A stretch of DNA of 64,000 nt, from contig CAWCNY010000002.1 in the NCBI GenBank assembly GCA_963797095.1, forward strand, positions 832,001-896,000, written 5' to 3'. The notes under the pieces are model-generated. The model was not told the DNA's origin. It ran no database searches and was given only the letters and a program-made list of their open reading frames with translations. The position numbers and the translations under genes are program-made. Positions 3,314 to 32,090 of this stretch are shown here, piece by piece. Each line of letters begins with the position of its first letter. Positions within the stretch are counted from its first letter, which is position 1. The DNA is from an uncultured Chloroflexia bacterium (GTDB lineage: Bacteria > Chloroflexota > Chloroflexia > QHBQ01 > JADMIH01).

Positions 3314-3802
3314 TTAGCCTGCAAAGTGGAGGGCTTCCTCCATGGAGAAGGTCGCTACGATCGGTTTGACAAGCCATTCATAATCGGCGAAGCGTACGCT
3401 CATGGTATCGGTATGGGTGCCTACCTGGAAGTAGATCGTCTTTTGCCGGGCCAGGTCTTTGTCGACATATACCGGCACATTGTAGATGTTGCCGAAGGGG
3501 GGCATCGCACCCACTTCGCAATCGGGGAAGAGGGCAGCAAACTCGACTTCCTCGGCCAGCCTTATGTCTCTTGAGCTAAGTATGCGGCCAATCTCCGGCA
3601 AGTGCACTCGCCCCGGAGCGGGTAGAACCAGCATCACCATCTTTCCATTGGCAACCAACATTACCACCTTGGCAACCAGGCGGCCAGGCAGGTGCTCGCT
3701 GGCAGCCACGTCCTGGGCAGTAAATGCGCTGGGGTGGTGTTGCACCTCGTAAGGCACCAGATTATCGCGCAGATACGTCTCTAATCTATCTTTGCACTTC
3801 AT
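3314..3802 (-). CDS. YbaK/ProX aminoacyl-tRNA deacylase-family protein
   Basis: VAKVV, CEVGAMPPFG motifs; AGGAGG RBS supports a start at 3802 (or 3808). Confidence 0.88.
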   Translation of the reverse strand: MKCKDRLETYLRDNLVPYEVQHHPSAFTAQDVAASEHLPGRLVAKVVMLVANGKMVMLVLPAPGRVHLPEIGRILSSRDIRLAEEVEFAALFPDCEVGAMPPFGNIYNVPVYVDKDLARQKTIYFQVGTHTDTMSVRFADYEWLVKPIVATFSMEEALHFAG

Positions 3803-8498: not shown

Positions 8499-8503
8499 CC
8501 CTG

Positions 8504-8587
8504 CGGAGAGAGTGGGATTCGAACCCACGGACCTCATCGGTCATCCGTTTTCAAGACGGACGCATTCGTCCACTCTGCCATCTCTCC
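8504..8587 (-). tRNA. tRNA-Ser (TGA), CCA not encoded
   Basis: GGAGAGA acceptor stem, anticodon arm TCCGT-CTTGAAA-ACGGA, long variable arm, GGTTCGAATCC T-loop. Confidence 0.95.
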
Positions 8588-27141: not shown

Positions 27142-28803
27142 CTAGCTTCCGCCTCCGGTCACCACGAACGAATGGATCGTGCCCTCGAACGGGTAGCGGG
27201 CCGGTTGCATCATCGTCCTCTCATTGGCTAGCGACCACTCGTACAATCCACTGAGCACCGACCCCTGGTCGGCTTTCGCCTTAGTTGCTCCATTCACCAT
27301 CAATGTAACCGTAGAACCCACTCGCTGCAGAACCACCGAATAGCGAGTACCCGGTTTCGCGATCACTCCACTGTTTAGCGTAGCGGTTGCACCATCGCTT
27401 CCCATAATCCTGGCCTTTATGGATGGATTATCGCCGGTTGCATCTATCTGAACAGTGATACCAGGCCCCATATTGTAGTTCGGACCGCCGATGTGCGCTA
27501 CCGCATTGATAGCTCCCTGGTTGATCTCTGCCGGTGTGAAGTCCACCTTGAAGGTCAGGTCGGTGAGGTAAGCACCTGCCAGATAGCTCGCTACCCCGCC
27601 ATCATTGGCACCCACCACCAATCCCCCTGACTCCCATTCATAAGGCGTTTGCAGGATAACAGGCGTTATGCCAAGCGCCACCCCGAATCCCCGCGTCATG
27701 TCGAGACGCACAAGGTCTGTGGAAGTCCTCCCGTCCGTTGGCGTGACGCGGTCCGGCAGGTCAAGGATGGCTAAGGGGTAAACGGCGCTATCTGTCTGTG
27801 CGAAAATGCGGTCATGCTGCCCCGGAACAGATACAAGATTCAGGTCGGATGCGCCCGTAATTGCCAGGTCACGATGGGCCTCAGGGTCAAAGAGCACAAC
27901 AGGATTCCCTATAGCTTTGCCCGTGTTAATATCCACCTCCACTATGCCACCTCTCCAGGTAACCTCAGGAGGCTCAAGCGTAGTAGATTTCCCGGTAAAG
28001 AATATCCATGACCTCCCGTCCGGGGTGAACGCAAGGTTGGGGTCGGGTCGCGACGCATTGGCCCAGGGGGGCGCGCCCGTATCGCCGAACACCCCACATC
28101 CGCAATCATGATAGCTGCCCGGCTTGTAATTGAGCTTCTCCCACGGCCCGGAGGGGCTGGATGCCCGTGCCAGCAGCAGCGGCGAGTTGTTCCACGTCTC
28201 AAAGCCCACTGCGTACCAGTAACCATTGGTGGGGTGTTTGCGAACCGCGAAGTCTACCATCGGAGCGTCAGAAGAACCAGGGAAAGCCGCATCCGCGAAG
28301 ACGAAGCCTGTTGGATCTGCATTGGTGCTCACCCAGTGCTCGGTCCATTTCTTAGTTGGGTTCACCCCCCACATATGCCAGGTGTCTCCATCTTTCACGA
28401 CAGTGGGGTAGCGTATCGGCGCTACCTGGCTGAACGCCGGTGGCCCCTTCACCAGGTCTTCAGGCGTGTCGCCAACATACACATCTATCCGTGCGGGTTC
28501 TTCGCTACCCGTTGCGAATAGATAATACTTGCCGTTGGAATAGATAAAGTCGCTTTCCTGGTAGCCGTTTGCGTTATTAGGCCCGCTTGGGTCGTATCCA
28601 TGCCCAATGATGGGTGGAATGGCGCGCGCCGGCAAATACCAGGTTCCCAATCGCGCCCGGTCCAGCAAGCTGTTGCCTGTCGATACCACACGCGCAGTGC
28701 TTGTGCCGAATCGCAACGGGATGATCCATACCATCAAGATGATCGCTCCCAGAATGAGGGTGATGGTTAATGCGGTGATCGGTATGCGTGCTTTAGTAAA
28801 CAT
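27142..28803 (-). CDS. Membrane-anchored beta-propeller (GH43-like) + LamG-like protein
   Basis: N-terminal TM, GKYYLFATG, ASSPSGPW, DPNL blades, C-terminal FEGTI beta-sandwich. Confidence 0.55.
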   Translation of the reverse strand: MFTKARIPITALTITLILGAIILMVWIIPLRFGTSTARVVSTGNSLLDRARLGTWYLPARAIPPIIGHGYDPSGPNNANGYQESDFIYSNGKYYLFATGSEEPARIDVYVGDTPEDLVKGPPAFSQVAPIRYPTVVKDGDTWHMWGVNPTKKWTEHWVSTNADPTGFVFADAAFPGSSDAPMVDFAVRKHPTNGYWYAVGFETWNNSPLLLARASSPSGPWEKLNYKPGSYHDCGCGVFGDTGAPPWANASRPDPNLAFTPDGRSWIFFTGKSTTLEPPEVTWRGGIVEVDINTGKAIGNPVVLFDPEAHRDLAITGASDLNLVSVPGQHDRIFAQTDSAVYPLAILDLPDRVTPTDGRTSTDLVRLDMTRGFGVALGITPVILQTPYEWESGGLVVGANDGGVASYLAGAYLTDLTFKVDFTPAEINQGAINAVAHIGGPNYNMGPGITVQIDATGDNPSIKARIMGSDGATATLNSGVIAKPGTRYSVVLQRVGSTVTLMVNGATKAKADQGSVLSGLYEWSLANERTMMQPARYPFEGTIHSFVVTGGGS

Positions 28804-28957
28804 CGTTGTTGGCACTTCCCTCCGATGGTAAATGTGCAATATGCAACAGTCACGCCTCACGTATCACGTTCTGTGCCATGCTCTGTTTAGCTTAGCTTCA
28901 TTAGATTAAAGGAGGGTGTGAGAAGAATTAAGATATGCTTAATCCTGCGCAAGGAAT

Positions 28958-29008: not shown

Positions 29009-29806
29009 TTACTTCTTTATTTCGGCGTATGTTGGGTGAGGGAGGAAACCCCAATGGTCCTGGGGCCAGTAAGAAACAAACGCTGTGCCTACTATACTTT
29101 CAATAGTAATAGCGTGCTCAGGGAAGACGTGCGAGTCGCTGGAGTTGCGCCTGTTATCTCCCAGCACGAACACACGGTCTTTCTGGACTGTGAATGGCCC
29201 GAAGTTGTAGTCGGGCGTCTGCTTTATATACGGCTCGTCCAGTTTGACCCCATTGATGTACACCCCGCAGGCGCCGCAATCGCGCTCAGGGTTGCCAATG
29301 GGGTCGGGGTCGGCCTTGATCTCGACCGTTTCGCCCTCGACCGCTATCACCCGCTTGATGAAATCCTTATCCTCTATAGGCGCTTGAAAGACGATGATAT
29401 CGCCGCGCTGAGGCCCATGGAAGAGATAGCGCATATCAGGCTGGATGTCTTTGTTCAAGATCCGCGCCAGGAAATTGGCGTCGTAGCGATAATAAAGGCC
29501 GCTGTTTACAAGCAGGCGCTCCTCGGTGTGGAGCGTAGGGAGCATACTGTCGCCCTCGACCTTGAAGTTCTGGACGACCGAGCGCACCATGAAGAAAATA
29601 AGCAGGGTAATGAGAACCGTCTCGATAATATCGCGGACGGCGCTCTTGCCCATTCCTCTACCGGGATAAGCCAGGTCTTCGGATACACTATCGCTGTCAA
29701 AGTCGGGAACGTAAGGTAGGCGTTGTTCGGAATGCCACCACGTATCATTGTCACTTTCTATTCGCATCTTGATCTCTTTTTGTGCCGCGAGGAATTTGCT
29801 TTCCAT
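29009..29806 (-). CDS. lepB: Signal peptidase I
   Basis: GDSMLPTL, RGDIIVF, FIKRVI, GDNRRNSSDS motifs; start may be 29767. Confidence 0.94.
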   Translation of the reverse strand: MESKFLAAQKEIKMRIESDNDTWWHSEQRLPYVPDFDSDSVSEDLAYPGRGMGKSAVRDIIETVLITLLIFFMVRSVVQNFKVEGDSMLPTLHTEERLLVNSGLYYRYDANFLARILNKDIQPDMRYLFHGPQRGDIIVFQAPIEDKDFIKRVIAVEGETVEIKADPDPIGNPERDCGACGVYINGVKLDEPYIKQTPDYNFGPFTVQKDRVFVLGDNRRNSSDSHVFPEHAITIESIVGTAFVSYWPQDHWGFLPHPTYAEIKK

Positions 29807-29948
29807 TATATAGCATGGAACGGGCCAGGCCCTATATATAACGTAATTATATACGCTGAGTATTACATGCGCAATCGGCGGCTTGGTTGTACAATGAGCC
29901 CTGGATAGTACTCATGCCCGACTTGTGGGGTGAATGGGAGGGACAAAG

Positions 29949-31469
29949 ATGGTAAATAGAGTAATGGAAACGTATCCGGCCCCGCCGTTCCAGCCGGGGT
30001 TGGATTGGATCAATACGGGTGGAAAGGCGCTGACCTTAGAGGATTTGCGCGGGAAGCTGCTGTTGCTCGATTTCTGGACCTACGGTTGAATCAACTGCAT
30101 GCATATATTGCCGGTGGTGCACCGGCTTGAAGAAAAGTACGCAAATGATCTCACAGTAGTGGGGGTGCATGCCGGTAAGTTTATCGCCGAGAGGGTGACC
30201 GAGAACATCAGAACGGCCACGCGGCGGCTTGGGGTCGCTCACCCGGTAGTGAACGACAGGCATTTCAGAACGTGGCGATCCTATGGCGTGCAAGCATGGC
30301 CCACTGTAGTCTTAGTCAGCCCCGATGGGCAATATATCGGCCAGCATTCAGGCGAGTTTACCTTCGAGCAGTTCGACCAGATCATCGGCGGTCTGGCCCA
30401 GGCTTATCGACAGGAGGGCCTGTTGATCGATGGGCCTCTACACTTTCTTGTGGACCCTGATCCCACCCCATCTTCTCTATTGCGGTTTCCGGGCAAGGTG
30501 CTCGCCGATGCGGTAGGCGGGCGGCTATTTATCTCAGATACCGCCAACAACCGTGTGCTGGTAGCAGCTGTTAGTGAACCTGGCGGAGTTGCCACCATTG
30601 TGAGCGTGATAGGGGACGGGGTATCAGGATTTCAGGACGGAGCCCTTGCCGAGGCTCAACTGAACCACCCCGAAGGCCTCGCTTTGCAGGAGGATACGCT
30701 GTACGTCGCCGATAAGGAGAATCATTCGATCCGGGCGGCTAACCTGGCGCAAGGCACACTCGAAACTATCGCCGGGACCGGGCAGATCGGCTATAGCAGG
30801 GAAGGCGGGATGGGCCGCGATGTGGCCCTGAACTCGCCCTGGGACTTGCTTGAAAGCGACAACTATCTCTACATAGCCATGGCGGGCAGGCACCAGATAT
30901 GGAGGATGGTGCTCAGCACGGGGCGTGTGGACCCGTTTGTTGGGAGCGGACGCGAGAACATAGACGACAACCTGAACAGGAGCGCCACCCTTGCCCAACC
31001 CAGCGGGCTTACCACGGACGAACAGCGCCTCTTCTTCGCCGACAGCGAGTTGAGTGCGGTGCGGGCAGCCGATTTCTCGCCCGATGGCTACACACAAACT
31101 CTGGTAGGGAGCGGCCTGTTCGACTTCGGCGACAAGGAAGGCAAGACCCTCGAAGCTAAGTTGCAACACTGTCTTGGCGTAGCCTATTACGAGGGCGGCA
31201 TACTTATCGCTGACACATACAACAACAAGATCAAGAGACTTGACCTGAGTGCAAAGGAAATAATAACTCTCCTGGGTTCTGGGAAACCTGATCAGTTGTA
31301 CGAGCCTGGCGGCCTATCGATCTGGGATGGTCAGGACAGCGCACGACTGTACATCGCTGATACCAACAACCACCGTGTGCTGGTATCGGTGATCAACAGC
31401 GATGGTACACTATCTCCTCCATCGGTTGTGGAGATCATCTTTCCCGGTGCCACAAGCAACGAATCGTAA
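29949..31469 (+). CDS. Thioredoxin-like + NHL-repeat protein (NHLRC2/SOQ1-like), probable selenoprotein with UxxC
   Basis: ATG at 29949 after GGGAGG reads ...[17 protein letters not shown](30087-30089)-INCMH in frame with the 30099 ORF; NHL repeats ([25 protein letters not shown]). Confidence 0.88.
30110..30126 (+). promoter_or_regulatory. Candidate bacterial SECIS hairpin
   Basis: GCCGGT-GGTGC-ACCGGC with a G-first loop about 27 nt after the UGA. Confidence 0.55.
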
Positions 31470-31484
31470 GATTACATCCAGGAG

Positions 31485-32090
31485 TTAGTGCGCGGCGATC
31501 CCCAACCAGATCGCGTCGATCACGGATTGGAGCCATTGATCGTCTTCAGCCTGCCCCGCGATATGGCGTGCGAAGATTGAGCCCGCAATCATCTGGGTAA
31601 TAACTTCAACCTGTATATCGGATCGTACATCTCCGCGCTCGATCCCCCTGCGAAGTATGTCTGACATCGCTTCCATGCGTGGGTAGATGACCAGGCTCCG
31701 GAAAAGCTCAATCAGTTCTGGATCTTCGCGCTCTTTGACCAACACAGTGCCGAGCATTGAATAGAGATTACGCGCTTTCAGTATCCTATGAAATTGGCCC
31801 ACAAACTTGTAGAGGTCGGCACGCACATCGCCCGAATCTGCATAGGTCTCCAAAGTGTTAGCAAGCGACGACACGGCAGCCACCACAAGTTCACGCTTGC
31901 CGGGGTAGCGCCTGTAGATGGTGGTTTTGCCCACCCCTGCGGCTGCGGCCACCCCTTCCATAGACATAGCATCATACCCCTGCTCAACGAGCAACTGGAG
32001 GGTGGTTTGGAGGATGGCCTGGTCGGCCTCGGAGCTCCGAGGCCGACCCGCTGTTTTCTGGGTGATCGTGGTCATGTTGTAGTATATCAA
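31485..32090 (-). CDS. TetR/AcrR-family regulator
   Basis: GRPRS..., GVGKTTIYRRY HTH. Confidence 0.93.
   Translation of the reverse strand: MIYYNMTTITQKTAGRPRSSEADQAILQTTLQLLVEQGYDAMSMEGVAAAAGVGKTTIYRRYPGKRELVVAAVSSLANTLETYADSGDVRADLYKFVGQFHRILKARNLYSMLGTVLVKEREDPELIELFRSLVIYPRMEAMSDILRRGIERGDVRSDIQVEVITQMIAGSIFARHIAGQAEDDQWLQSVIDAIWLGIAAH

Follow-up and report, generated by a model that had tools for sequence, protein, structure and literature searches.

Does an in-frame TGA codon in a gene of an uncultured Chloroflexia bacterium end translation, or does it encode selenocysteine (Sec)? The gene lies at 29949-31469 on the + strand of a stretch of 64,000 nucleotides (nt) of DNA, here called the window (GenBank assembly GCA_963797095.1, contig CAWCNY010000002.1, positions 832,001 to 896,000). 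The TGA is at 30087-30089. Comparison with homologous loci indicates that this codon almost certainly encodes an active-site selenocysteine. As judged from sequence, the gene is the Sec form of a two-domain oxidoreductase of the NHLRC2/SOQ1 type, composed of a thioredoxin (Trx)-like domain and an NHL β-propeller. Its Sec insertion is predicted, and its database record is mis-annotated.

The coding sequence (CDS) starts with ATG at 29949-29951. A Shine-Dalgarno-like GGAGG is located upstream at 29937-29941, and the spacer between them is 7 nt, as read from the sequence. Beyond the TGA the frame reads I-N-C-M-H and remains open to the stop codon at 31467-31469. With TGA translated as Sec (U), the product has 506 residues including U47, and the motif reads FWTYG-U-INC. 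A first-pass annotation of this DNA had described the ATG with its ribosome-binding site, the TGA, the INCMH continuation and a 506-residue product, and all of these are present at the positions given here. Comparison of alignment columns with homologs places the TGA at the first position of a predicted UxxC motif. The TGC at 30096-30098 encodes Cys50, the predicted resolving cysteine, which is invariant in alignment A3. The window copy contains no further stop or frameshift. Under translation table 11, the open reading frame (ORF) list gives an ORF of 456 residues at 30099-31469 (+), the start that the annotation had also reported. ATG 30099 is Met51, immediately 3’ of U47-I48-N49-C50. The shorter ORF is without strand β1 and the entire UxxC motif.

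Homologs of the gene show that TGA alternates with TGC or TGT at exactly this column, as the annotation had anticipated. A six-frame search of 61 related genomes, the window’s own included, returned 30 loci, all of which were examined. Nearly all full-length orthologs in this relatives set have exactly one in-frame TGA. The position of the first Cys of CxxC holds TGA in 27 of the 30 loci, in the context DF[WM]TY[GC]-U-INC, and TGC or TGT in the other three. Two of the three Cys loci belong to the same genus and one to the same class. Unpublished genomes (G016, G021 and G022) account for three of the 27 TGA loci; without them the counts are 24 TGA and 3 Cys.

The same alternation was found across the phylum. 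Among 201 evenly drawn genomes, 35 contain an ortholog at a cut-off of E ≤ 1e-70; of these orthologs, 24 have a single TGA and 11 lack one. These counts include the unpublished G202 and G095. The other 32 loci were fetched, and the column holds TGA in each of 22 TGA forms and a Cys codon in each of the 10 others. One of the 22, L199 (G067:C88), carries the TGA, but its upstream frame fails to encode the conserved strand; the copy may be decaying, or the assembly may contain a frameshift. A scan for the TGA motif in one genome per GTDB species identified at least 119 stretches. Eighty titled loci were analyzed. Many are from Dehalococcoidia and Chloroflexia, and SAR202, Thermomicrobia, Gemmatimonadota, NC10/Methylomirabilales, Actinomycetota, Armatimonadota and Planctomycetota are also represented. 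The query is matched through both domains in 68 of them, six run off the fetched DNA, and six are Trx-only or have another architecture.

Shorter Chloroflexota proteins with a DFWTYx-TGA-INC motif and no NHL propeller were also observed (L084, L110 and L120, and also L071, L090 and L053). L084, L110 and L120 read DFWTYI-U-INCRR. Proteins of this type may form a separate Trx-only Sec family, or may not contain Sec at all.

The host genome (6.02 Mb in 8 contigs, 93% complete) contains the Sec machinery that the annotation had named. The tRNA-Sec scores 69.1 bits against a cut-off of 47, and ARAGORN confirmed its TCA anticodon. SelA is matched at 468 bits, SelB at 323.5 bits (352 with a C-terminal piece in frame) and SelD at 324.6 bits. 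All four components are above curated cut-offs. The SelD gene carries one in-frame TGA itself and is a candidate selenoprotein gene (L018:1531-1576, contig C2, outside the window). Within the window, a tRNA-Ser with anticodon TGA (8503-8587, −) gives a sub-threshold match of 36.2 bits to the tRNA-Sec model. In the phylum sample, SelA was found in 155 of the 201 genomes, including all 24 with TGA forms and all 11 with Cys forms. All 35 genomes with an ortholog in this sample are SelA-positive, and the 46 genomes that lack a SelA match yielded no ortholog, a comparison that is uncorrected for relatedness.

The TGA is followed by a hairpin at 30110-30126 (+) that resembles a selenocysteine insertion sequence (SECIS). 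Its 5’ arm GCCGGTG (30110-30116) and 3’ arm CACCGGC (30120-30126) enclose a GUG loop (30117-30119), and the stem begins 20 nt past the last base of the TGA. The annotation had written the same element as GCCGGT-GGTGC-ACCGGC; we describe it as a 7-bp stem with a GTG loop. In the host SelD gene, a hairpin of the same design (7 bp with 6 GC pairs, GUG loop) lies 26 nt past the TGA. Bacterial SECIS elements of the type found in E. coli fdhF are short GC-rich hairpins located in the CDS shortly past the UGA, with G-U in the apical loop. The hairpins found here, with GUG or AGUU loops, are alike in general design and unrelated in sequence.

We assigned the hairpin from its fold, its covariation and an RNAalifold analysis. 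The genus set contains 18 sequences, with unpublished genomes excluded. In this set the 7 pairs are formed in 85.7% of cells; sliding the 3’ partners by 1-3 columns lowers this to 23.8-49.2%. Two of the pairs have compensatory changes, one with GC in 8 sequences, UA in 6 and CG in 2, and the other with CG in 12 and UA in 6. None of 500 shuffles reached the observed covariation score. Unguided RNAalifold returned the same helix as the only consensus structure. Covariation is seen in the order/class set too.

Outside the genus, the TGA forms have a different hairpin, yyyCCGC-AGUU-GCGGrrr, which starts at +20/+21 and encodes PQLR. A hairpin of 7-8 bp with an AGUU or GUU loop, variants CCCC/GGGG and CCUC/GAGG included, is present in 21 of 22 phylum TGA forms and in none of the 10 Cys forms. 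The best stems in these Cys forms have 4 bp, the exception being a stem of 6 bp at +17 that has 2 GC pairs and a loop of 6 nt. In family f31, AQLR is encoded here by a TGA form and by a Cys form alike, and the codons that pair are found in the TGA form only. The three Cys forms of the relatives set fold at -3.8 to -5.3 kcal/mol, without the hairpin. The element that the annotation had called SECIS-like is conserved with compensatory changes in TGA forms, and is missing in Cys forms. In the cross-phylum loci, a perfect stem of at least 6 bp is found in 69 of 80; 49 of these 69 start at +21 and 57 have an AGUU loop.

Several observations weigh against decoding of the TGA as Sec. The window hairpin is unremarkable as a single sequence: folding of the 60 nt gives a z-score of -1.29, and its stability is equalled or exceeded by 24 of 200 shuffled sequences. 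Hairpins with a perfect stem of 6 bp or more, a minimum of 4 GC pairs, a loop of 3-5 nt and a start at +18 to +25 occur at 3780 of 200000 random positions and 3252 of 168279 genomic TGA triplets, about 1.9%. It is the comparative data, and not the single sequence, that indicate a hairpin exceeding chance. These data also contain irregular cases. The pairs are unformed in 14.3% of genus hairpin cells, and in the genus members L028, L029, L031 and L032 the hairpin contains mismatches, with folding energies of -4.6 to -6.5 kcal/mol. In the cross-phylum loci, 11 of 80 lack a perfect stem of at least 6 bp, and several of these have bulged or larger-loop versions. No clear hairpin was found in L096 or in the Trx-only L071, L084, L110 and L120. 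L199, the TGA form with a disrupted upstream frame, has no hairpin by the above thresholds. An Rfam search of 29900-30300 at E ≤ 10 gave no SECIS family and two chance-level matches, to microRNA and snoRNA models. Co-occurrence with SelA is consistent with Sec decoding but discriminates poorly, because genomes with Cys forms also have SelA. SelA was not found at E ≤ 1e-20 in G058, a TGA-form genome that is 96% complete. It was likewise not found at this threshold in the TGA-form genome G040, which is 51% complete and has a weak SelA match. Both genomes have SelB (360 bits in G058 and 351 in G040) and tRNA-Sec (62.7 and 53.8 bits).

Three other explanations of the TGA were considered. It could be a true stop, separating a 46-residue leader peptide from a 456-residue protein that starts at ATG 30099. 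This is what the table-11 ORF list gives, and it is the form in which the window protein and close relatives are stored. The 456-residue product would be without strand β1 and both redox residues. The 37 codons 5’ of the TGA are also conserved in frame, in the same manner as the downstream part. Among 26 orthologs their amino-acid identity is 72.3%, compared to 70.4% and 75.7% in two downstream blocks. Differences at the three positions of the upstream codons number 266, 170 and 517, and changed codons are synonymous in 387 cases and non-synonymous in 266; the downstream blocks are alike, and all three blocks around the TGA show the third-position excess. Orthologs align across the TGA starting at residues 1-10 in the six-frame search, and most have a start codon at the equivalent place. 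In addition, a single open frame with a Cys codon at the site runs through 3 orthologs of the relatives set and 10 of the phylum sample. We regard termination at this TGA as very improbable. A pseudogene, or an assembly or sequencing error, is what a lone in-frame stop in one assembly would normally suggest. Moreover, the one sequencing run found, of soil-metagenome DNA, contains a third of the words sampled, and its two contigs span 29901-30067 and 30185-30337 only, leaving the TGA uncovered. The same-column TGA in 27 of 30 related loci, in 22 further phylum genomes and in the public-genome stretches of several phyla stands against this explanation, as does the otherwise intact frame of the window copy. 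It is the least probable of the three.

A third possibility is selenium-independent readthrough of the UGA, in which a near-cognate tRNA would insert Trp or Cys and the hairpin would do no more than slow the ribosome. Hairpin-stimulated UGA readthrough occurs in bacteria, and nothing in a sequence-based analysis measures selenium. Against this, the genome retains the full dedicated Sec machinery, and the hairpin resembles the one past the SelD TGA in the same genome. The codon is also located at the nucleophilic Cys of CxxC and alternates only with Cys codons. Readthrough of this kind seems to us no likelier than a true stop, and we prefer to read the TGA as a Sec codon.

The structural context of U47 was analyzed by sequence and by prediction. 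The Trx-like domain, of the TlpA/ResA type, covers about residues 11-155 (29979-30413, +) as delimited by Pfam Thioredoxin_8, the SOQ1 alignment and the model. It holds the UxxC motif and a cis-Pro loop, W117-P118-T119, of which W117 and P118 are invariant in alignment A3. The six-bladed NHL β-propeller covers about residues 175-482 (30471-31394, +), as supported by Pfam NHL, the strands of the model and its TM-score (template modelling score) against known structures. The Pfam matches are NHL at E = 2.2e-21 and Thioredoxin_8 (PF13905), the best redox match in Pfam, at residues 35-128 with E = 9.3e-14. The best match by sequence to a solved structure is SOQ1 (7DJJ; E = 2.2e-105, residues 11-475), followed by human NHLRC2 (6GC1; E = 3e-89, residues 10-480). 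U47 aligns with the second Cys of YCCINC in SOQ1, and the WPT cis-Pro loop is aligned as well. An extracytoplasmic reductase of the TlpA/ResA/CcmG type was considered and rejected: the NCBIfam ResA model gives 50.4 bits against a cut-off of 170, and TlpA gives 30.6 against 230. No NCBIfam model scored over its cut-off in a scan of the protein.

An AlphaFold model was calculated from a 36-sequence alignment (predicted local distance difference test 89.8, predicted TM-score 0.88). In the model, a strand at residues 37-43 is followed by residues 44-47 and a helix at 48-52, which places residue 47 just before the helix. There are 24 strands between residues 181 and 497, which fits six four-stranded blades. 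The model superposes on SOQ1 (7DJK) and NHLRC2 (6GC1) with a whole-chain TM-score of 0.89 in each case. The assignment to the NHLRC2/SOQ1 family made in the first-pass annotation holds by both sequence and predicted fold.

The lumenal Trx-like and NHL region of Arabidopsis SOQ1 (7DJJ, 7DJK) is homologous in both domains, and superposes with a root-mean-square deviation of 2.4 Å and an identity of 38%. It reads DFWTY-C-C-INC-MH, compared to DFWTY-G-U-INC-MH here. SOQ1 has Cys and not Sec, and Gly46 of the window protein is equivalent to the first Cys of its CC doublet. Relatives of the window protein have either C-U-INC or G-U-INC. SOQ1 also has a HAD domain at its N-terminus, a membrane helix and, at its C-terminus, a domain that carries a second Cys pair, whereas the window protein stops after the propeller. 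NHLRC2 (6GC1, 6G7W) has the Trx-like domain and the six-bladed NHL propeller in common with the window protein, with 36% identity. Its CCINC motif is located at the N-terminus of helix α1, facing the propeller cleft (PMC6107167, in the part of the text available), and residue 47 of our model is found in the equivalent place.

The absence of the C-terminal domain is seen in several analyses. The window protein ends about 24 residues past the propeller, and of the 667 residues of the SOQ1 chain only 8-491 are matched. Bacterial Cys forms that are longer, at about 620-700 residues, have a C-terminal domain with a Cys pair. A profile of this domain, built from 31 longer bacterial homologs, gave nothing at E ≤ 10 in the six-frame translation of the host genome, which is 93% complete as stated above. 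The same profile found 31 of the 35 other proteins of alignment A3. Because the SOQ1/NHLRC2-type C-terminal domain is absent, the window protein is a two-domain short form of the family.

Additional comparisons can be made with other Trx-fold proteins. Bacterial Trx-fold UxxC selenoproteins (‘Thiol-disulfide isomerase-like protein’, peroxiredoxin-like thiol:disulfide oxidoreductase and Sec-thioredoxin) have in common with the window protein the UxxC motif, the domain type and a hairpin just past the UGA. The family tables that list them, in two selenoproteome reviews, include Thioredoxin_8/cd02966 for the ‘Thiol-disulfide isomerase-like protein’ (PMC9312934 and PMC13188914, available portions). 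That family was first listed from the Sargasso Sea with four sequences containing UXXC (PMC1088965, available portion). The window protein has Thioredoxin_8 together with UxxC, the combination listed for that family; the two may or may not be the same. The word ‘NHL’ does not occur in the available portions of these three papers, which describe no propeller fusion. A literature search for selenocysteine with NHLRC2, SOQ1 or ‘NHL repeat’ returned no paper that was relevant by its title or the opening of its abstract. The C-terminal Trx-like domain of M. tuberculosis DipZ (2HYX, 5CYY) is matched at residues 11-177 with E = 1.7e-23. Of the structural homologs that the available text of PMC6107167 names, DipZ has the motif nearest to CCINC, namely SCINC. 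DipZ differs from the window protein in having no NHL propeller, in being part of a membrane electron-transfer protein, and in having Cys instead of Sec.

Based on these results, we consider it very probable that the locus is a single gene encoding a 506-residue cytoplasmic selenoprotein, with predicted decoding of the UGA via the hairpin and a UxxC centre that faces the propeller. SelB carrying Sec-tRNA(Sec) would be recruited by the mRNA hairpin at 30110-30126, and UGA 30087-30089 would be read as Sec. In the TlpA/ResA-type fold, Sec47 is predicted to be located at the N-terminus of helix α1 and to form with Cys50 the UxxC centre facing the propeller, like CCINC in NHLRC2/SOQ1. Sec47 would be the attacking nucleophile. 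A selenenylsulfide would be formed with Cys50 or with the substrate, and a cellular reductant would recycle it. The propeller most likely holds a protein substrate, on which a disulfide, a sulfenate or a sulfoxide would be reduced. The translation has no N-terminal hydrophobic stretch visible by eye, which suggests a cytoplasmic location. Without a C-terminal domain, the protein would act directly on its substrate or via an unrecognised partner.

Published work on the two best-known homologs bears on this proposed function in both directions. In SOQ1, the Trx-like domain contains a redox-active pair of Cys residues that transfers electrons to the C-terminal domain, and the lumenal domains of SOQ1 reduce methionine sulfoxide in LCNP, according to the available part of a preprint (10.1101/2024.11.01.621559). 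Two points speak against a redox enzyme with the architecture found here. The same part of the preprint assigns the methionine sulfoxide reductase chemistry of SOQ1 to the C-terminal domain, which is absent from the window protein. Human NHLRC2 was inactive in an insulin reduction assay, and thiol-disulfide exchange by CCINC was doubted (PMC6107167, available text). Variants of NHLRC2 cause the fatal childhood disease FINCA.

The kind of gene is familiar, but the site is marked as catalytic in a family whose chemistry is unsettled. Natural alternation between Sec and Cys at the first position of CxxC is a marker of a catalytic redox residue. The alternation found here supports a redox view of the NHLRC2/SOQ1 family, for which the bacterial Sec protein could be a model enzyme. 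We also raise, tentatively and as more doubtful than not, the possibility that the two-domain Sec forms are self-sufficient enzymes. Sec47 would attack methionine sulfoxide, sulfenate or disulfide on a propeller-held protein, and selenium would offset the missing second redox centre. If this is true, the CxxC of NHLRC2 and SOQ1 would be a true catalytic site, more than a relay. In that case the family's substrate would best be sought with the bacterial Sec enzyme, as its most active and tractable member.

We built a quick IQ-TREE phylogeny of 42 proteins with the trait column masked and the unpublished loci excluded; 15 of the 80 cross-phylum loci were added. The Cys forms L023 and L024 are the sister group of the window protein and L022 (support 97). 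They are placed within clades of 8 (support 99) and 22 (support 100) that are otherwise all Sec; the genus clade contains 20 Sec forms and 2 Cys forms. For the third Cys form, the sister is a Sec form (support 99). At least two changes of the Sec/Cys state are needed on this tree of sequences. The tree itself is unrooted; if the root is located outside the genus, Cys would be derived there and its hairpin would have decayed.

Two hairpin designs are found in this one gene family. Most phyla have the AGUU loop at +21, encoding PQLRK. The window’s genus has a GUG or 5-nt loop at +23, encoding PVVHR or PAVRR. In both designs the CCG codon of Pro55 is paired with a CGG codon for Arg, which is one codon further downstream in the genus. 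The aligned sequences indicate that a replaced SECIS hairpin, with a GUG loop resembling that in the organism’s own SelD gene, is particular to the window’s genus. As a specific course of events, the genus may have swapped the widespread AGUU-loop SECIS for a hairpin with a GUG loop that is displaced by about 2 nt, with PQLRK re-coded to PVVHR or PAVRR, a case of SECIS turnover inside a CDS. We think it rather unlikely that this course of events and the self-sufficient enzyme proposed above will both prove correct. The family itself presents two different SECIS hairpins in one place, with amino-acid changes following the RNA.

The effect of the TGA on public annotation is seen in the database records. 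The first-pass annotation had expected standard pipelines to truncate the gene. The record of the window protein (P0002) has 456 residues, and P0013 and P0056, the relatives checked, begin exactly at the residue aligned with Met51. One of these two is named ‘alkyl hydroperoxide reductase [Chloroflexia bacterium]’. Gene callers appear to shorten the gene because the internal TGA very probably encodes selenocysteine. Most of the close relatives listed cover 90% or less of the query, and only P0003-P0006 reach 98-100%. The labels among the listed relatives include ‘YncE beta-propeller’, ‘YvrE lactonase’ and ‘alkyl hydroperoxide reductase’. A dedicated family model would correct many database records.

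The surroundings of the gene were also analyzed. A scan of 29700-31700 found no promoter-like sites and two terminator-like sites, both within the CDS, compared to 1.6 expected. No RNA sequencing run is listed as containing the sequence. The neighbours are a divergent S26 signal peptidase, a convergent TetR regulator, an ABC-2 permease and a GNAT acetyltransferase, and they give no functional lead. Bacterial relatives of NHLRC2 have no conserved neighbouring genes according to the available text of PMC6107167, and none are apparent at this locus either. An ORF of 572 residues at 27142-28860 (−) of the window matches no Pfam family at E ≤ 0.001. To the left of the window, a frame of 639 residues (G000:C2:830929-831936, −) contains two tandem thioredoxin-like domains and no in-frame stop. 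Both match residues 11-152 of the query, at E = 5.7e-30 and 7.9e-25, and are Cys-type paralogs.

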